A stretch of DNA of 64,000 bases from Planctomycetota bacterium. GTDB lineage: Bacteria; Planctomycetota; B15-G4. Under the pieces are notes generated by a model. The model was not told the origin of the DNA. It was given only the letters and a program-made list of their open reading frames with translations, and ran no database searches. Positions 43,417-54,767 of this stretch are shown piece after piece. Where the stretch lies: positions 42,232-106,231 of the forward strand of contig JBBQUR010000017.1 in assembly GCA_038212275.1 (NCBI GenBank), in the 5' to 3' direction. Numbering within the stretch: the first letter of the stretch is position 1; every line of letters starts with the position of its first letter. Made by a program: the position numbers and the translations under genes.

Positions 43417-45687
43417 TCATGGTAGCCCGGGAACCGCAGACCACTGATACAGGTACGGAACGGGATCGTCGACCAGACTCCACATCGTGGTCTCCGTGTC
43501 ACATGGGTTGCACACGTGCGGCAACAGCTCGGATCCGTTCAAGTAGACTTCATGCCATGGAAACTTGTCGTGGTTCATCAGGAGCGTGAATTCGATCGGT
43601 CCAAGTTGCCCAGTCAGTGGATCGTGCACCTGACGAAGCAACATCCCGCCATTGGCGTCAACATCGGGTGCGAATGAAAGGCCAAACAGTCCGGAGCACC
43701 CCGGCCCGACCGCAAAGCCAAATGGCAGCACTGCTGCCTGATGCTCCCCTGAGGATGCGGGCAACTCGTCATACGTTGGCGGCACGAATGTGTGCACGGG
43801 GCCCTCTTCTGGACCGCAGATCACCATTGATAAGTACTCCCACACCACGTGGCAGAATTTTTGACACCAAGTTCCCTCGCTGTTCTCCGGAAGGCAATTG
43901 TCAACTATGCTGGACAACGCATGGCTGGTGACATATGTCTGCGGGGTGATTCCGCTCCATGAGAGCTTGAATGTCATCATTCCGCGACTTGCCGAGTTCT
44001 GGTAACCATACGTCCTGGCATCTCCCGTTGTGAAAATGACCGGCAATACGAGAGGCATGTATTCGCACTGCAGAAATGCTCGGTAGGAAACTTCGATGTC
44101 CGGAAGTTCTGATACGGCAACAACGTGTCCGGCCGTAAATTGATCGCCGCCCGGTGCAGTGTACAGCAACGAAACGGTGATGGATTGCGAATCGAACGAC
44201 TGCCACGTCACCAAGTGCGTAGTAGTCCCACTGATGGAATTTACAACGTGTCCTTGTGCATCCACCAACGCCCCTGACGAAGCCCCTTCCGCGAGAGTCC
44301 ACTCGTACGATCCATTTTCGGCACCGCCCACCTTCGTCAGGTCCGTCGAATGGCCAGCCACGAGCCGACTGGCCCCGTCGATCGCGACTGGCGGCGCCCC
44401 GATATACACATCCTTCGACTTGCTCTTGTTGTTGTTTAGGCTTTGCTCGGTGCCCGCATTCACAAACCGAAGCCGGAACGCTCGCTTCTTTCCGTAGTTT
44501 TCCGGACCCGTGAGACTTCCACCCAGCACGATGATCTGAATCGGCGACGTCTTTACTCCTGACTGACACGGGATGGCGCCGATGGGAATGAGGACGCCGG
44601 GCAGTGCTTGCCAGCTCCCGTTCTTCGCCTTCATCTCAACGAGCACTGCAGTATTGTCGCTTGTGGTCGACGTTCCATTGTTCTGGTACTGGAACTGGAA
44701 CTTCAGGACGCCGCCGCTGGACACAGTCGGCACGGTCGCAGGAGAGATCGGCTGAGGAGCCAGCCATATCCAAGGATTGTTCGTGAAGGAGACATCTGCC
44801 TTGAGACTGATGGCGTCGCGCTCGCCCCATGGCGTATGGTAGAAGGGCACGCCAGCGGTTTCGCGTGCTTTCAACGCGAAGTAGCGCTTGCCGGCATAGT
44901 TCGGGAAAGTGAACGTCCGCGTGAATTCACTGATGGGCCATCCACCGTGGATCTGTCCCAGCGAGAAGGATGCGACCCATTGCGGGTCGCCCGACATGTC
45001 CGACGTGGCTGCCGAATAGAGGTCCATGATAGCATCGGGCACCGCGAGCTCGCCCCCATTTATCAGCCGAAAGGTGGCAGTGGCCGGCGCGCCGCCGCAG
45101 ATATGCTTCTCGTCTAGGATATCCAGCCAGCCCGCATGAATATCGGCGACATCGGGTCGCGTCAGGAAGAACTCCTGGGAAGGTGAGTGAGACGTGTCCA
45201 AGAACCCATTTATGTACGTCGTCAGGTTAAAACGCAGGTAGTGGAACCCCACCTTGAACTCTGTCGAGGGCAGAGTCGTCCAGAGGTTGTTCGGTGTAGG
45301 AGCGATTTCATCGCAGCCGAGACATGGCGGGATAGGAAGCGATGCATCCCAACTGGAAAATGTCGAGGTCGGCTTTTCGGAAATGGTTGGGTAGCCGTAG
45401 GATCCAATGCAAATTGGTGCTCCGTTCGAGTAGTTGCAGGGAGTGTGAGGAGCCTGCCTCGTGAATCGCACCCAAACTTTTTCGTCACCGACCGTCATCG
45501 GTACATTGAACGAATTGGTATTCAAGTTTACTTGGGCTGGCGTTTTCCGATACCAAGTTACGTCGAGTGCGGTCCACGTCGATTGTGCCGACGCCGTGCC
45601 CACGCATCCCAAGACAATTAGGATCGCAGCCACGCGAGAGTTGAGGTGGAGCAACATGCCTGAAACTGAACGATTTCCTTGTGGCAT
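43417..45687 (-). CDS. Large secreted protein with CARDB/Ig-like domains
   Basis: 756-aa ORF; signal ending TASAQ; FRLINGG, FQYQNNG, EQSLNNN motifs. Confidence 0.72.
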   Translation of the reverse strand: MPQGNRSVSGMLLHLNSRVAAILIVLGCVGTASAQSTWTALDVTWYRKTPAQVNLNTNSFNVPMTVGDEKVWVRFTRQAPHTPCNYSNGAPICIGSYGYPTISEKPTSTFSSWDASLPIPPCLGCDEIAPTPNNLWTTLPSTEFKVGFHYLRFNLTTYINGFLDTSHSPSQEFFLTRPDVADIHAGWLDILDEKHICGGAPATATFRLINGGELAVPDAIMDLYSAATSDMSGDPQWVASFSLGQIHGGWPISEFTRTFTFPNYAGKRYFALKARETAGVPFYHTPWGERDAISLKADVSFTNNPWIWLAPQPISPATVPTVSSGGVLKFQFQYQNNGTSTTSDNTAVLVEMKAKNGSWQALPGVLIPIGAIPCQSGVKTSPIQIIVLGGSLTGPENYGKKRAFRLRFVNAGTEQSLNNNKSKSKDVYIGAPPVAIDGASRLVAGHSTDLTKVGGAENGSYEWTLAEGASSGALVDAQGHVVNSISGTTTHLVTWQSFDSQSITVSLLYTAPGGDQFTAGHVVAVSELPDIEVSYRAFLQCEYMPLVLPVIFTTGDARTYGYQNSASRGMMTFKLSWSGITPQTYVTSHALSSIVDNCLPENSEGTWCQKFCHVVWEYLSMVICGPEEGPVHTFVPPTYDELPASSGEHQAAVLPFGFAVGPGCSGLFGLSFAPDVDANGGMLLRQVHDPLTGQLGPIEFTLLMNHDKFPWHEVYLNGSELLPHVCNPCDTETTMWSLVDDPVPYLYQWSAVPGLP

Positions 45688-46001: not shown

Positions 46002-46468
46002 GGATTCACTCCTGTTCGAGATCACCGTGTCATCCCCGGTGCGGCACAGCGCCGAACGCCTGATCAACCCAAACTCAGCCTCTGTAGCCGTATCCGGTTA
46101 TAGACCTTTCCGCACCGGAGATGGTCCCACGCATGCGGCAGTCGGTCAAGCGCTGCGAGCACCAATCCGCGGAGCATGCCGTGCGGTGGTTCGCCAATGA
46201 GGCCGCAAAGTGCATTTCTGGCACTTCCGGCTTTCGTGTGGGTAGCTGGGACGCCATCACCCACCGTTTCGACCTGCGTCGGTAGCTGTTCACGACGCAT
46301 CCCGCCCCTGGCCCGAGGGCCCCAGGCCGGACTTGCCCTTTCCGCCCTAACCTTGATGTGTCGAGTAGATCAGATGGGATGAGAAGGCCAGCCTCCTTCG
46401 CGGGATACCTGTGGGGTTCCCATCGTCATCACGAGCTCGAGGGCTCACAGACAGAAGGAGGCTGATCC

Positions 46469-47551
46469 TTGGAAAAGGCTACCACGACCATGTCCACCCT
46501 GACCATCGGCATCGACCTTGGCGACCGGCACAGCCACCTGTGCCTGCTCGACGACGGCGGCAAGGTCATCGAGGAATCCCGACTGGCGACCACGCCGGAA
46601 GCGTTCCGAGGCCGCTTCGCCGGACTTTCGAAGACTCGCGTCGCGATCGAGGTCGGGACGCATTCACCTTGGATCTCTGCGCTGCTGGCGGAGCTGGGCC
46701 ATGAAGTGCTCGTCGCCAACCCGCGCAAGCTGCGCATGATCTACCGCAACGACAGCAAGAATGACCGCTGCGATGCCGAGCAACTTGCGCGAGTGGCGCG
46801 CATGGATCCGAGCCTGTTGTATCCGATCGAGCACCGCGGCCGGCAGGCGGCCGTCGACCTTGCCGTGCTGCGCTCGCGAGACACGCTGGTCGCGGCGCGC
46901 ACACGCCTCGTCAACCATGTGCGCGGCACGCTGAAGGCCCTTGGCCTGCGCGCGAAAAAGTGCTCCACGCCGTCGTTCGACAAGCAGGTGCCCGAAGCGA
47001 TCCCCGAGGAGCTGCAGCCGGCGCTGGCTCCCATCCTCACCGCGATCGGCGAGCTGACGACGGCAATCAAGGGCTACGACAAGGTCATCGCCACACTGTG
47101 TCGCGACTCGTATCAGGAGACCGAGCTGTTACGTGCTGTCCCCGGTGTTGGTCCCGTGACCGCGCTGAGTTTCGTGCTGACTCTGGAGGATCCAATCCGG
47201 TTCAAGAAGAGCCGCGCTGTCGGAGCCTTCTTAGGATTGCGGCCGAAGCAGCGGCAGTCCGGCAGCAGCGATCCCGAGCTGCGCATCACGAAAGCCGGTG
47301 ACCGGGATCTGCGACGCCTGCTGGTGCAGAGTGCGCAGTACACCTTGGGGCCCTTCGGCAAGGACTCCGACCTGCGGCGCTGGGGTCTCGCACTGGCGGC
47401 GCGCGGCGGAAAAGCCGCCAAGAAACGCGCGGTCGTCGCCGTGGCGCGCAAACTGGCGGTGCTGCTGCACCGCCTGTGGGTGACCGCTGAGGTCTACGAG
47501 CCGCTGCGCCAAGCCGGGAAAGTCGACAGCCGCAAAGCAATACCTGCGTAA
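46469..47551 (+). CDS. IS110 family transposase/recombinase (DEDD RuvC-like)
   Basis: IGIDLG, AIEVG, KNDRCDA, VPGVGPVTA, GLRPKQRQSG, ITKAG, VAVARKL; AAGGAGG RBS before TTG. Confidence 0.97.
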   Translation: MEKATTTMSTLTIGIDLGDRHSHLCLLDDGGKVIEESRLATTPEAFRGRFAGLSKTRVAIEVGTHSPWISALLAELGHEVLVANPRKLRMIYRNDSKNDRCDAEQLARVARMDPSLLYPIEHRGRQAAVDLAVLRSRDTLVAARTRLVNHVRGTLKALGLRAKKCSTPSFDKQVPEAIPEELQPALAPILTAIGELTTAIKGYDKVIATLCRDSYQETELLRAVPGVGPVTALSFVLTLEDPIRFKKSRAVGAFLGLRPKQRQSGSSDPELRITKAGDRDLRRLLVQSAQYTLGPFGKDSDLRRWGLALAARGGKAAKKRAVVAVARKLAVLLHRLWVTAEVYEPLRQAGKVDSRKAIPA

Positions 47552-47609
47552 TTATCCAACACCTGAATCTCTGGAGAACGAAAGCCGGCGCACCGCGAGC
47601 GAGTCTCGG

Positions 47610-47833
47610 GTGATTCCTGGAACACAATCGAACTGCATTCAACCGCCCAGTCCGGGTGACTGCGACGAATGGCTAGGCCAGACGTGCACTCACGTGCCCC
47701 GAAGGTCGCAGATCAGATGGCAGCATCCGCACTGGACGGACCCCAACAAGCACCGAGCCGCAACCACGCTGGGCTCATCAAGAGTGCGCATGGAAGCACG
47801 GCGGACGATGCGCTTCGATCCACCAGGAATCAC
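47610..47833 (+). ncRNA. Putative bridge/seek RNA of the IS1111 element
   Basis: Closing stem GTGATTCCTGG/CCAGGAATCAC; two stem-flanked loops whose sequences match the target flanks and the IS end. Exact RNA ends unknown. Confidence 0.82.
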
Positions 47834-47860
47834 TTGACGCGTAGGGCCTTCTCATGGAAG

Positions 47861-48045
47861 CCATTCGGCTTCACCCGCACAGATCGGGACTGCCGCTTTC
47901 CCGCATTCGGCTCTTCCGGGAGGTGTCCTGAATCCAGCTACGTCGGATCGCTAAGGTGCACGGAGACGGAGTCTGGAGAGAGGGTAGCGCGCGAGCAGGG
48001 CATTAAACCGTCATGGGGGCAGGCCGTGATTCCCACCTTGCCGGC
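47861..48045. repeat. Copy 1 (right part) of the ~200-bp non-coding repeat; left part at 46360-46373, split by the IS
   Basis: Shares TGAATCCAGCTACG, TCGCTAAGGTGC, CGGAGACGGAGTCT, TAGCGCGCGAGCA and CAGGCCGTG with 54568-54767. Confidence 0.9.
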
Positions 48046-48127
48046 TCCGGCTGACGTGGAGCGCGAGGGCAGAGACGCACGTTGGCCGAAGTAAGGCCTC
48101 AGCCGATCGTGGGCGGACTTCGCTGCT

Positions 48128-49132
48128 TCACGAGGTAGTGCCCTTCAGTGCGTTGCTAGCCGAAAAGCCAAAGCTCGCCGTGGGATCGGAGACCCACACT
48201 TGGAAAAAGATCTCTGTGCCAGGCGGTAGGCCGGACGGCAAGGTGAACGCGAAAGCAGCCGATCCAAGCCCGTCCGTGCCAAGGGGAAGGAAGAGCACCG
48301 GATTGGGAACCATGACACCGCCTTTGAACGGGGCATCTAGTTCCGAAACGCCGACGACCAGCGTGGCCGCCGAGAAAGGTCGCGCCTTGCTCAGATTCAG
48401 GTGGTTCACCGAGCCAGCGTAGAGAAATCCATCGGCGGTCAGCCACGGCACGCCCTGCGATCCGCTCTTTCCGTGGTCGAGATCCGTCCAGGTCTGCGGC
48501 CCATCCACCCGAAACGCGATCTCGTTGGCGATCGTTCCGAAGCCGTTGCCATAGTTGGTGAGCGTGCATTCGATGTATTGAGCGGTGACAGGAAGAAACG
48601 GCAGGATGATCGCATCCGCATTCGGTGTGGGAAGGTTGAAATAGCTGCCTACGTTGATGGCACCGCTAGAAAAGTCGCCATCTAGGTCAGCCCGCACCAC
48701 CATAGTGCTGATCGCCTGGCTGTGGAAATTGCTGCCTTGCCACAGGGCGATGGCAGAGACCTGATAGGCAGCGCCAAGATCAAAGACCATCACTCCCGAC
48801 GACACGAATGCTGCCGAGTTCCACGACCCCAGACCGTGGTGAGGCGTCGCCGGGACAAACACGTCGAAGTTCGTGATGCCACTCGCATACGGCGCGTCCA
48901 ATCCCGATTGATCGACGAGATGCACGGCCTCGAGCCCTGGCTGCTCCCCCATCGAGTTCGATGCGATCGTTGGCTGAACAATGAACTGCGCGGCAGCACT
49001 TCCTACGGATGCCAAGACCCCGAGCAGCGCACTGATGCCCAAAGCAACGCTGCTAGGGCGGCCCGATCCGACGATCTGGCCTCTGCCGAGATTCGGCCAC
49101 ATTGCCTGACGTTGATACAGTCTGTCATTCAT
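48128..49132 (-). CDS. Secreted discoidin-like (jelly-roll) domain protein with the shared C-terminal domain
   Basis: Signal ending AAAQ; LVDQSGL, VFDLG, IALWQ, EIAF; shared CTD. Confidence 0.78.
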   Translation of the reverse strand: MNDRLYQRQAMWPNLGRGQIVGSGRPSSVALGISALLGVLASVGSAAAQFIVQPTIASNSMGEQPGLEAVHLVDQSGLDAPYASGITNFDVFVPATPHHGLGSWNSAAFVSSGVMVFDLGAAYQVSAIALWQGSNFHSQAISTMVVRADLDGDFSSGAINVGSYFNLPTPNADAIILPFLPVTAQYIECTLTNYGNGFGTIANEIAFRVDGPQTWTDLDHGKSGSQGVPWLTADGFLYAGSVNHLNLSKARPFSAATLVVGVSELDAPFKGGVMVPNPVLFLPLGTDGLGSAAFAFTLPSGLPPGTEIFFQVWVSDPTASFGFSASNALKGTTS

Positions 49133-51930: not shown

Positions 51931-54348
51931 TCAAGGCGTTCCGGACAGCTGGAGCCGGTGTACCCCTCCATTGCCGTCTGCAACGTAGAATGCAGGTCCG
52001 GACGTGTCAGATGGCGCAGGCGCGAGGGCCTGAGGCTGAAATGGCGTCGGTATTGTAAGCAACAGCGACATCGGGCTTGCTGCGGTGTCTAGCACTTCGA
52101 TGGAGCCATTTAGAAATGCCACATAAAGATTGCTGTCTCCTGATGGGCCATGCATGACGCCGAGCACCGACTGCCCGCTGTGTACATAGGTCTTGAGCAG
52201 CGATGGTGTCGCGCCGGGAGTGGCAGAGAACGTGGCGACTCCATTGCATCCGAATCCGGCAAACAAAGATCCCGAGCGGTAGTGAATACGCCCAACAAGC
52301 GAGTCAGTATCGGTACTTATCTGAGCCTTTCCGAGATAGCTGCAGACAACCTCTGTTCCGGTCCATTCTGCATCAATCGCGACGACACCAATGCCTGGAT
52401 ACGTCGAGTCATCACTACCGTACGTCGCCCATACTGTGAAGTTATTGCTGCCATCGGGCTCTACCCACAAACCAACCAAGCTGCCGCGCTGGCCGTCGAA
52501 GGACGAATCGCAGCGCAGCGGGACCCACGCACCGATTTCCACAGCCAGTGACGGCAAGAGGTGATTACCACCATTCTTTCCCAATCGGTAGATGCGGATC
52601 GCCCCGACGGCTTCCTTGCCTGGACACGCCCCCCTTGATGCCGCGCTGTCAGACCTGTTCAGCGCGAAGAGCCACGGGTATCCATCAGGTGTGGAGCCAG
52701 CAGGGATTGCTTGTGCTGAATAGACACGACCGTTCGTTGCTAGTGAGCCATAGCTAGTGAGCGATTGAATTATGCCGCTGCTGAACGTCGGTTCAACGAA
52801 GATGACACCATCAAAATTGGTATCAAATATCATCGCGCGATACGTGCCATCCGGACCGGTTCCCGAGTCCATGGTCGAGAGCCACACTCCACCTGTGTGC
52901 ACATAATCGGTTGGCTCCTCCAGCAGTGACGAACTTGACGTAGAGATTGAGCCATCAAATGTAGCAACGCCGGACTCGGTGCAAACAACGATGTTGTCCC
53001 CGAACACTGCAACGTCATCGGCATTTGAGATAGGAAGGTTGCCATCGGATTGGTCAAAACTTCCGACTTCCGTTAGATGCCATGACGATCCGCTTCGCGC
53101 CGCCTCGACTACGCGCAGCCCGCTCTGACGCGCGGCGACATCAATTCGAATTGTGTTGTCGTCAACAGCTCTCGCGGATACCTTCACGGGGATACCACCC
53201 AGCGGCCCCTCGCCTGATGCTGAAATGGTTGCCAAACGCGTCGCGGTGCCCGTCGCAGTATAGAGCCTAACTGAGAGCTCAGCCGTCCCGCTGTCGTCTA
53301 ATGACTGATCGTCGCAAGTGGATGGCATTGAGCATGCCCCCCACTCCTGGCGATCGGCAGGAAAGGAAGGGCCGAGCACAATCGCGAGCAAGTACTCCTG
53401 AGAAGTCGGCTCCGCCAATGCAAGGCCTTGGTAACGGCAAGCGGTGCCGCCACACAGAATCGGCCAGCCATAGCCAACAGTCTCGTTCAAGTTTCCAATA
53501 TTCAAGCGATGCACTCCTCGGGTGTTCGCTGCCACATAAGCAACGCCTCCCCCCGGATCGATGACAATGTCATGGATAAATGTCGGCACTGGCTGTGAGC
53601 TGACCTCAACACTCCATGTAGCTGCTGGGGATGATGGAATCGTCAATGGCGCGCCACTCGAAATGTCGAAGTCATACTCCTGAAGTGCATCACCACTCGA
53701 CGAACCGCCCGCACAAGCGGTGCCGACAAGGACGATGAGCTTGCCATTCTCCGTGTCCAGGGTGGATGCAAGCGAATAGACTGGTCTTCCAACGGACTTG
53801 CTTGCCATTAACTGAAGGCCGCTGTTGTTCGACAACAGCAACTCAATCGTACCCGCGGTATCAGAGGTATTTGTTCCGACGATCACGACCTCGGTGGGTC
53901 CAACAAGCTGGTGAGTAACAGCCCACGCTTCTGCGTTGCCTGTAAGGAATGCTTGCGCCCCCGGATTACCGTCCAGTGTGGGGCGGTCGAATCGCACCAG
54001 TCCGTTTCGCGACGCCGCTGCATAGACATACGATTCCGACACGTCTAGCCGGTGAACGAATCCTCCGGCGCGAAGTTGATTCTTCACTCCGCTTGGCGTC
54101 GTCGCAAGGACTGGCTCGTCGGAGGCTCCGTTGAGAACGTAGATGCCGCCGCCTGAGCTCATGAAGATCGTATCGCCGTCCGAAACGCTCGTTTGGCATC
54201 CCGCAAATGGATACGTGTGCGTTAGTGTCGTAGTCACTTGTGACTTGGCAACTGTGCCTGCGCACACCAGCATCGCCAGCATCGCCAGCACCGTCAGCCC
54301 CGTCAGCCCCGTCAGCCCCGTCAGCCCCGTCTGAATGGTCGTTCTCAT
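51931..54348 (-). CDS. Secreted beta-propeller (LVIVD-like) protein, low GC
   Basis: 805-aa ORF; YVYAAA..GL, AYVAA...GV, FYVADG.GGV repeats. Confidence 0.78.
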   Translation of the reverse strand: MRTTIQTGLTGLTGLTGLTVLAMLAMLVCAGTVAKSQVTTTLTHTYPFAGCQTSVSDGDTIFMSSGGGIYVLNGASDEPVLATTPSGVKNQLRAGGFVHRLDVSESYVYAAASRNGLVRFDRPTLDGNPGAQAFLTGNAEAWAVTHQLVGPTEVVIVGTNTSDTAGTIELLLSNNSGLQLMASKSVGRPVYSLASTLDTENGKLIVLVGTACAGGSSSGDALQEYDFDISSGAPLTIPSSPAATWSVEVSSQPVPTFIHDIVIDPGGGVAYVAANTRGVHRLNIGNLNETVGYGWPILCGGTACRYQGLALAEPTSQEYLLAIVLGPSFPADRQEWGACSMPSTCDDQSLDDSGTAELSVRLYTATGTATRLATISASGEGPLGGIPVKVSARAVDDNTIRIDVAARQSGLRVVEAARSGSSWHLTEVGSFDQSDGNLPISNADDVAVFGDNIVVCTESGVATFDGSISTSSSSLLEEPTDYVHTGGVWLSTMDSGTGPDGTYRAMIFDTNFDGVIFVEPTFSSGIIQSLTSYGSLATNGRVYSAQAIPAGSTPDGYPWLFALNRSDSAASRGACPGKEAVGAIRIYRLGKNGGNHLLPSLAVEIGAWVPLRCDSSFDGQRGSLVGLWVEPDGSNNFTVWATYGSDDSTYPGIGVVAIDAEWTGTEVVCSYLGKAQISTDTDSLVGRIHYRSGSLFAGFGCNGVATFSATPGATPSLLKTYVHSGQSVLGVMHGPSGDSNLYVAFLNGSIEVLDTAASPMSLLLTIPTPFQPQALAPAPSDTSGPAFYVADGNGGVHRLQLSGTP
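54268..54331. repeat. In-frame 9-bp tandem repeats in a signal-peptide coding region
   Basis: CAGCATCGC x2 then CCGTCAGCC x4, encoding GLTGLTGLTGLTVLAMLAML. Confidence 0.85.
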
Positions 54349-54567: not shown

Positions 54568-54767
54568 GTCGAGTAGATCGGCCATTCGGCTTCTCCCTCG
54601 CAGATCCGGACTTGCGGCATTCCCGCATCCGGCTCGTCCCGGCGGTGTCATGAATCCAGCTACGCAGGGTCGCTAAGGTGCGCGGAGACGGAGTCTCGGG
54701 AGGGGATAGCGCGCGAGCATGGCATAGAACCGGTCCCAGGACAGGCCGTGCTTCCTGCCCCGCCGGC
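54568..54767. repeat. Copy 2 (intact) of the ~200-bp non-coding repeat, containing a near-empty IS target site
   Basis: GTCGAGTAGATC-GG-CCATTCGGCTTC matches the rejoined IS flanks (which have AG in place of GG); homology continues for ~175 bp. Confidence 0.9.

Follow-up and report, generated by a model that had tools for sequence, protein, structure and literature searches.

The 64,000-nucleotide stretch of DNA analyzed here (the window; Planctomycetota bacterium, contig JBBQUR010000017.1, positions 42,232 to 106,231 of the forward strand) carries on its plus strand, at 46374–47860, an insertion sequence (IS) of the IS110 family and IS1111 type. The element is 1487 bp long, including the right-hand copy of its core dinucleotide, and we consider it highly probable that its 3′ non-coding end encodes a bridge RNA or seekRNA of about 169 nt that takes part in the recombination cycle proposed below. 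The guide segments of this RNA can be read against the flanking DNA, and in related elements they change together with the flanks, the core, and the right end of the IS, within a scaffold that is itself conserved and covarying. By analogy with characterized members of the family, transcription of the RNA, its binding to the transposase, circle formation, and strand exchange would be expected, and this copy may be active at present. An IS1111 element with guides for its own target and donor had been proposed from the letters of the window (the original prediction), and every string quoted there was found in place when 46200–48000 was re-read.

The first letters of the element, from 46374 on, are ATGGGATGAGAAGGCC, and its last, up to 47860, are GGCCTTCTCATGGAAG. 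The core AG flanks it on both sides (46372–46373 on the left and 47859–47860 on the right), so that the left junction reads GTAGATC-AG/ATGGGAT and the right junction CTCATGGA-AG/CCATTCG, the slash marking the element boundary. These ends are conserved among relatives, and in contigs with related elements from three other sequencing runs the similarity stops exactly at 46372 and 47860. Subterminal inverted repeats of 11 bp are positioned 5 nt from each element end, counting the core on the right: ATGAGAAGGCC at 46379–46389 (plus strand), which is conserved in relatives, and GGCCTTCTCAT at 47845–47855 (plus strand). Their length falls within the 7–17 bp of the IS1111 type. The non-coding ends measure 95 nt on the left, upstream of the transposase gene, and 309 nt on the right, downstream of it, which is the asymmetry that marks this type. 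The assignment to the IS1111 type is supported by the subterminal repeats and the longer downstream non-coding region, and the claim that this is an IS1111 element is borne out by these two features together with a DEDD/serine transposase gene.

The transposase gene (46469–47551, plus strand) encodes 360 residues from a TTG start that aligns with the ATG or GTG of relatives. Its product matches PF01548 at residues 13–157 (76 bits), PF02371 (Transposase_20) at residues 219–291 (74 bits), and, over profile positions 1–341 of 343, the NCBIfam model NF033542, "IS110 family RNA-guided transposase" (218 bits, cut-off 140). Judged by its motifs, the protein is a DEDD (RuvC-like) plus serine recombinase. 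A motif search placed the DEDD residues in IGID (D16), AIEVG (E61), and KNDRCDA (D99 and D102), the N-terminal D/E/D/D equivalence resting on motif position and not on a structural alignment, while the serine motif GLRPKQRQSG (S264) lies in a region that aligns with the ISCro4 and IS621 transposases. The C-terminal domain as a whole aligns with these two transposases in the PDB, and similarity to IS621 is limited to it (E 7e-9).

Two segments of the 3′ non-coding end are predicted to bind the target. The 5′ target guide, CGAATGGCT (47666–47674, plus strand), is the exact reverse complement of the core plus right flank (47859–47867) and pairs with both core bases. The 3′ target guide (47710–47718, plus strand) consists of AGATC and the core AG followed by AU; its AGATCAG (47710–47716) equals 46367–46373 and continues as ATGG, the first bases of the IS. 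Transposase relatives were gathered from species genomes (25 loci) and metagenomes (80 loci), and in the decisive test, for covariation, guides were scored strictly over unique element/flank pairs by the contiguous perfect match beginning at the junction. A match of 6 nt or more between the 5′ guide and the right flank was present in 37/61 cognate pairs versus 2/3372 non-cognate ones. For the 3′ guide and the left flank, matches of at least 4 nt were found in 24/52 cognate and 3/2316 non-cognate pairs, with a modal length of exactly 5 nt, as in the AGATC of the window. The core varies in step between RNA and DNA (AG with AG in 42 cases, AA with AA in 8, discordant in 2). The original prediction had named these guides and had suggested asking whether such loops covary with the flanks of other insertions; the guides are real, and across the relatives the answer is positive. 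Its reading of the core as CT on the bottom strand, with an IS621-like geometry, holds as well. In 48 of 52 rows (2 of them with doubtful anchors) the 3′ target guide is followed by AU, the dinucleotide with which the IS begins; this represents conservation and not covariation, because the left end hardly varies.

Both target guides are embedded in an RNA unit of 169 nt (47640–47808, plus strand), delimited by a covariance model from relatives. The 3′ ends of the relatives align around an invariant scaffold, GACUGCG ... AGAU-GCAGC ... GCACC ... GAGUGCG-AUGGAAG. A covariance model from homologous ends had been suggested as a check, and the model built here on 37 relatives with the window excluded (R1) matches 47640–47808 over its full length (114.5 bits, E 1.9e-33). 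The same model gave 92 matches, in 90 loci, when the loci of 97 relatives were searched, and no second match anywhere in the source genome. A five-helix structure was tested on 46 non-redundant sequences: 91.5% of cells were paired, and 12 of the 28 pairs had changed on both sides. Pairing fell to 30–43% when the partners were slid by 1–3 columns. The covariation score was 0.276, versus 0.04–0.08 with slid partners, and was reached by none of 500 shuffles. The bridge/seek-RNA architecture put forward in the original prediction is upheld by this scaffold, with its compensatory changes, and by guides that covary with the flanks.

The RNA is predicted to fold as a three-way junction composed of a closing stem (P0), a hairpin arm (P1–P2), and a second hairpin (P3), all read on the plus strand. 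P0 is formed by 5 bp (47643–47647 with 47800–47804), shows a C-G to U-A change in 9 sequences, and is the conserved closure of the unit. P1 (47653–47663, in which A47659 is bulged, with 47720–47729; helix 2) has 94.6% of cells paired and 4 pairs changed on both sides, and P2 (47676–47679 with 47704–47707; helix 3) has 96.2% paired and 2 pairs changed on both sides. The outer part of P3, GCAC/GTGC (47750–47753 with 47784–47787; helix 4), is invariant, and its inner part, GAGCC/GGCTC (47755–47759 with 47772–47776; helix 5), has 4 pairs changed on both sides. Three helices drawn in the original prediction stand in part. The stem proposed between 47647–47663 and 47720–47735 is conserved and covarying over the portion that forms P1, but in full it is imperfect. 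The ACGTG/CACGT apical hairpin above P2 (47682–47686 with 47691–47695) is present in this copy but variable or absent in relatives. An outer stem of 11 Watson-Crick pairs (47610–47620 with 47823–47833), taken as the closure of the whole unit, exists here, and a stem of equal length was found in 0/100 shuffles; it was rejected as a family feature, a comparably unusual stem occurring in only 6 of 53 relatives.

The strands predicted to bind the donor flank P3 in the model, between it and P1 or P0. The 3′ donor guide, (C)AUGGA and the core AG followed by C47797 (47789–47797, plus strand), equals the IS right end plus core: CATGGAAG (47789–47796) is identical to 47853–47860, and C47797 matches the first base of the right flank. 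This identity had been pointed out in the original prediction, and it covaries with the right end. The donor 3′ heptamer follows that end through the forms ATGGAAG, ATAGAAA, ATAGAAG, and ATGGAAA, with 42 of 44 identical over 7 nt, the variation that is tracked amounting to two variable positions. Opposite this guide, the 5′ strand of the donor loop, ACCCCAACA (47740–47748, plus strand), is an imperfect complement of the core plus IS left end and agrees with the expected ATCCCATCT at 6 of 9 positions, just as had been described.

These elements can be assembled into a cycle in which the IS would excise as a circle joining CATGGA-AG-ATGGGAT. The circle junction is predicted to create a promoter that would drive both the transposase and the RNA, with TTGACG (47834–47839, plus strand) as the candidate −35, followed by 17 nt and GAAGAT, of which GAAG would come from the right end and AT from the left end; such a promoter would be completed only in the circle. 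TTGACG had been raised as a possible −35, and this is supported by the conservation of TTGAC: of 52 unique ends, 49 carry it at a distance of 20–22 nt from the right end. The internal loop of the P1–P2 arm would bind the target, and the strands beside P3 would bind the donor, formed by the joined IS ends. In the donor loop, the 3′ strand AUGGA-AG is predicted to pair with the IS right end and core, and the 5′ strand ACCCCAA to pair imperfectly with the IS left end. The ribonucleoprotein would then recombine the circle with the site GTAGATC-AG-CCATTCG. The cognate site here is, in all likelihood, domain VI of a decayed group II intron, a hairpin at the 3′ end of that intron. The element was originally described as an intact, reprogrammable RNA-guided recombinase; it does look intact by sequence, but its reprogrammability rests on the retargeting of relatives and on published members, not on this copy.

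A second structured segment is found at the left end, where CAGCCTCCTTC (46389–46399) pairs with GAAGGAGGCTG (46454–46464) in an 11-bp stem (hairpin 46389–46464, plus strand) that joins the inner edge of the inverted repeat to the ribosome-binding site of the transposase gene. Among 47 unique left ends of relatives, 27 can form a perfect stem of 8 bp or more in this place from differing sequences, and 19 include a Shine-Dalgarno-like motif. The folding energy of the hairpin in the window is unremarkable (z = −1.28). A terminator scan of the integrated copy returned one terminator-like site only, on the wrong strand and inside the gene.

Several observations weigh against the reading of this locus as an RNA-guided IS1111 element, and some of them bear on particular alternatives. 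Fewer than six contiguous bases were matched in 24 of the 61 cognate 5′-guide pairs, several of these misses representing a one-base offset or a single mismatch, and two relatives, L017 and L045, match at neither target guide. An Rfam scan of 46200–48100 gave nothing relevant up to E 10, and no family fits the RNA. By tblastn the transposase has only 26–27% identity to IS4321/IS5075 and at most 35% to any plasmid-borne copy, which touches the IS1111 placement, and the non-coding end of IS5075, the sole IS1111 member inspected, shows no scaffold similarity to the RNA of the window. The 5′ donor strand ACCCCAA matches the left end ATGGGAT at 5 of 7 positions, and over 17 distinct forms of this strand 3–7 of 7 positions match, 16 of the 17 forms lying at 3–6. 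At the single variable position of the left end compensation is mixed, being present in L106, L116, and L119 and absent in L026, L030, L099, L111, and L115. The donor handshake base equals the first flank base in 22 of 44 cases, where composition would give about 16. Only one copy of the element exists in the source genome, with no identical copy elsewhere, so that there is no sign of recent movement, and the contigs of four DNA sequencing runs contain neither a circle junction nor an empty site. Finally, a promoter scan of the integrated copy found 0 promoter-like sites.

The weak 5′ donor strand raises the alternative that the left donor end is read mainly by the protein through the subterminal repeats, the strand itself being structural and the RNA serving as a target-seeker with half a donor guide. 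The imperfect complementarity seen in most clades fits this view, as do the long subterminal repeats, which set IS1111 elements apart from IS110 ones. Two points from the published work on IS1111 elements (Siddiquee et al. 2024, PMC11187229) fit it as well: its authors state that end recognition may differ between the two families, and an 82-nt seekRNA without the longer part is reported to have sufficed in the assay. The L060-type clade, however, carries a perfect 7/7 complement, AUCCCAU, at the same place, and the donor strands of L106, L116, and L119 have changed in step with the left end. The clear covariation of the 3′ donor guide with the right end also counts against this alternative, which we regard as possible but rather unlikely. 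Handshake pairing, which the original prediction had suggested for both 3′ guides, fares unevenly: the AU of the target loop is conserved, but it hardly covaries, and the donor-loop handshake base was set aside as a covarying position on the strength of its weak 22/44.

A second alternative accepts the bridge-RNA anatomy and holds that this copy is dead or domesticated, stranded at its only cognate site, with its RNA or protein not made or non-functional. Consistent with this are its single-copy state, the two mismatches between the 5′ donor strand and the left end, and the integrated form without a promoter. Because its two further copies deviate in the core, the target repeat offers no remaining perfect target in the genome, and the closest relative, L015 (83% identity), lacks the RNA scaffold. 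On the other side, the open reading frame is full length against NF033542 with its catalytic motifs present, all stems and both target guides are perfect, and the ends and the −35 are intact. The ACCCCAA donor strand is common to many relatives and is therefore a feature of the clade and not of decay, and a promoter-less integrated state is described as normal in the IS1111 family (PMC11187229). We regard a dead copy as unlikely. L015, which shares its contig with L040, is itself a decayed copy, cut after residue 201, with a left end nearly identical to that of the window. Other copies of the element and solo RNAs were sought in the source genome by blastn, loose motif scans, and the covariance model, and none were found.

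It is very improbable that the flank matches are chance or captured scraps of target in what is only a structured 3′ untranslated region of the transposase mRNA, since, although they are short (9 and 7 nt) and the minimum-free-energy fold of the whole 3′ non-coding end reaches only z = −1.89, the 9-mer recurred in 40 and the 7-mer in 579 of 20000 dinucleotide-preserving shuffles of 47552–47838 but both together in only 3, the same two loop positions change with differing flanks in relatives, a covariation that contradicts this reading, the matches lie on opposite strands and overlap at the core as described for published systems, and the surrounding scaffold is conserved with compensatory changes.

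The target probably lies in a decayed group II intron, in the hairpin of domain VI, because an uninterrupted paralogue (domains V–VI at 54568–54637, minus strand) matches RF00029 at 46.5 bits (gathering threshold 40, E 4e-8), the match stopping exactly at the start of the repeat (GTCGAGTAGATC). The left flank (46360–46373, minus strand) represents the last 14 nt of the intron remnant, the similarity to the paralogue starting at GTCGAGTAGATC, and it contains the five nucleotides read by the 3′ target guide (46367–46371) as well as the left core AG. The right flank (47861–48045, minus strand), assigned by its identity to the paralogue (81% to 54581–54767 over 186 nt), holds the rest of the remnant, which comprises the 5′ half of domain VI and a degenerate domain V; the part of it matched by the 5′ target guide is 47861–47867. 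The paralogue is unoccupied and reads GTAGATCgGCCATTCG at 54573–54588, with a core mismatch, GG instead of AG. A third copy, on contig C33 (~455–560), is uninterrupted and reads GTAGATCA-CCATTCG, with a 1-nt core deletion. Both empty copies differ from the occupied site and from the guides in the core only, and since both are uninterrupted the insertion point is fixed. In the sense of the intron, the IS interrupts domain VI in the 3′ strand of its hairpin (GAAGCC-GAAU-GGCU/GAUCUACUCGAC, with the slash at the insertion point), 12–14 nt from the intron 3′ end.

The three repeat copies span ~190–220 bp and correspond to the 3′ portion of a group II intron (domains V–VI). They are best described as remnants, because no maturase remnant was found beside the target-type copies, nor any other domain beside the paralogue, and because domain V of the occupied copy looks degenerate and was not detected. 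Intron targeting as a habit of the clade was considered and rejected, RF00029 matching in 1 of 20 relatives' loci (L053), where the match lies 109 nt beyond the IS. A search of 42 genomes of the order for the 14-mer target gave 4 exact matches in 3 genomes, none with an intron match, and these look like chance occurrences in unrelated DNA. At the level of titles and listings, a literature search returned no account of group II introns as a target of IS110/IS1111 elements, and the literature that was covered shows attC as a target common to IS110/IS1111 elements and group II introns.

A further group II intron is present in several copies in the same genome (RF00029 58 bits; C4:66–141, C25:66–141, C12:813–888, and C36:426–529), with one maturase (C12:500–736) and a domain VI that differs from the IS target. 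Its copies end at or near contig starts, so that it probably breaks the assembly. Elsewhere in the genome, a 79-nt stretch at C7:160870–160947 (L002) shares 78% identity with the beginning of the transposase gene (MTRLSIGIDPGD...) and no similarity beyond it; it resembles a transposase N-terminus and is a remnant of another IS110-family gene. Both intron-remnant copies in the window are positioned upstream of large minus-strand genes for apparently secreted proteins. The large minus-strand reading frames (43417–45687, 48128–49132, and 51931–54348) have signal-peptide-like starts and match no Pfam family, the sole domain match among them being F5/8 type C in the 334-residue one, at 18.7 bits and below the cut-off.

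The guides of the relatives show additional variation. In many of them pairing between the 5′ target guide and the flank reaches the core but takes in only one or neither of its bases (CA, UG, or UA in place of CU). Two relatives contain two tandem target-binding modules each, at L016:1016–1223 and L044:1477–1754, each locus giving two matches to the covariance model. In L016 the actual right flank is matched by the extra upstream module and not by the canonical one. In L044 the 5′ guide of the upstream module fits the right flank better, and the 3′ guide of the canonical module fits the left flank better. Such tandem modules could provide a route to retargeting by duplication. Seven distinct elements from different metagenomes (L043, L046, L055, L057, L058, L059, and L080) share the target GGGACC-AG-CGGATTATGAGG, and this sharing points to a widespread repeated sequence.

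The element was compared with the IS1111 members for which seekRNAs have been described, namely ISEc11, ISPa11, ISKpn4, and ISPst6. For these four, Siddiquee et al. (2024, PMC11187229) report an RNA from the 3′ non-coding region that co-purifies with the transposase and can be reprogrammed, in which the top-strand match lies 5′ of the bottom-strand match and the two overlap at the insertion point. As described there, they share with the element of the window a DEDD transposase with the GL-P----SG motif, subterminal inverted repeats, a long non-coding region downstream of the transposase gene, and two short matches to opposite target strands, of which the one to the top strand comes first (5′) and which share the insertion point. 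Like them, the element has no internal promoter and would form one in the circle, and repeated, potentially folded targets and natural retargeting among relatives are features of both. The differences include a transposase of 360 residues versus the 330–350 stated for the IS1111 family (PMC11187229) and a target in an intron domain VI hairpin, where IS1111 members are reported to use repetitive extragenic palindromic (REP) sequences, an attC site, or a transposon end. The four published elements have been studied experimentally, whereas the one described here is known from its sequence alone. According to the predictions of Durrant et al. (2024, PMC11208160), 93% of IS1111 elements carry a bridge RNA in their right end.

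IS621, for which loop geometry with a CT core (PMC11208160) and handshake guides (Hiraizumi et al. 2024, PMC11208158) have been defined, is also similar to the element in the features reported. A target loop and a donor loop can be drawn in both RNAs. The 5′ guide of each loop is the longer one (9 nt in the window) and the 3′ guide the shorter (5+2 nt), and the two are for opposite strands and share the core, although the 5′ strand of the donor loop fits imperfectly in the window. Seen from the RNA, the core reads CT, as in IS621, and the target becomes CGAATGG-CT-GATCTAC with the element inverted. Directly after the target 3′ guide, two bases agree with the donor in handshake-like fashion, and in both elements the right end contains the promoter −35, as a candidate in the window. 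In contrast, the RNA lies 5′ of the gene in IS621 and 3′ of it here, the element is inverted relative to the RNA–target geometry, and the repeats are 11 bp versus 2–3 bp in IS621. In the consensus fold the closing stem of the donor loop is predicted to enclose the target hairpin in the three-way junction, whereas in IS621 the two loops are described as side by side, and, unlike in IS621, the 5′ guides of many relatives pair with one core base only. The IS110-family element ISPpu9 of Pseudomonas putida and its small RNA Ssr9 (PMC12288879) provide a third parallel, with a repeated palindromic target and a small-RNA gene downstream of the transposase; solo RNA copies are reported there, unlike in the source genome of the window, where none were found.

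The element is a clear new example and not a new mechanism, and its value is incremental because the mechanism has been known since its publication in 2024. By sequence comparison it is distant from the characterized members, and IS1111-type RNAs have been less studied than that of IS621. The boundaries of this natural bridge-RNA element are clean, and each of its guides can be compared directly with the flanks beside it. The alignment and covariance model of ~90 relatives, with many natural guide/target pairs, could help to define which positions are programmable: a 3′ guide of 5 nt plus the core, a 5′ guide of 7–9 nt that often includes one core base, and a weak 5′ donor strand. An RNA model for an unnamed clade and a catalogue of natural guide/target pairs are by-products of this work, and the intron target and the tandem modules of two relatives offer small leads on how targets are chosen and changed. 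Tentatively, and with more doubt than confidence, we propose that these features belong together: an unnamed but widespread clade of IS1111-type bridge-RNA elements in soil, sediment, and freshwater metagenomes, without an Rfam family, in which the target hairpin is nested in the donor loop, the copy in the window homes to an intron domain VI, and the tandem modules of L016 and L044 may show target acquisition. If this is true, one mobile element would find in the decayed copies of another a landing site that is both safe and repeated, and new targets might be gained by duplication and divergence of the target hairpin.

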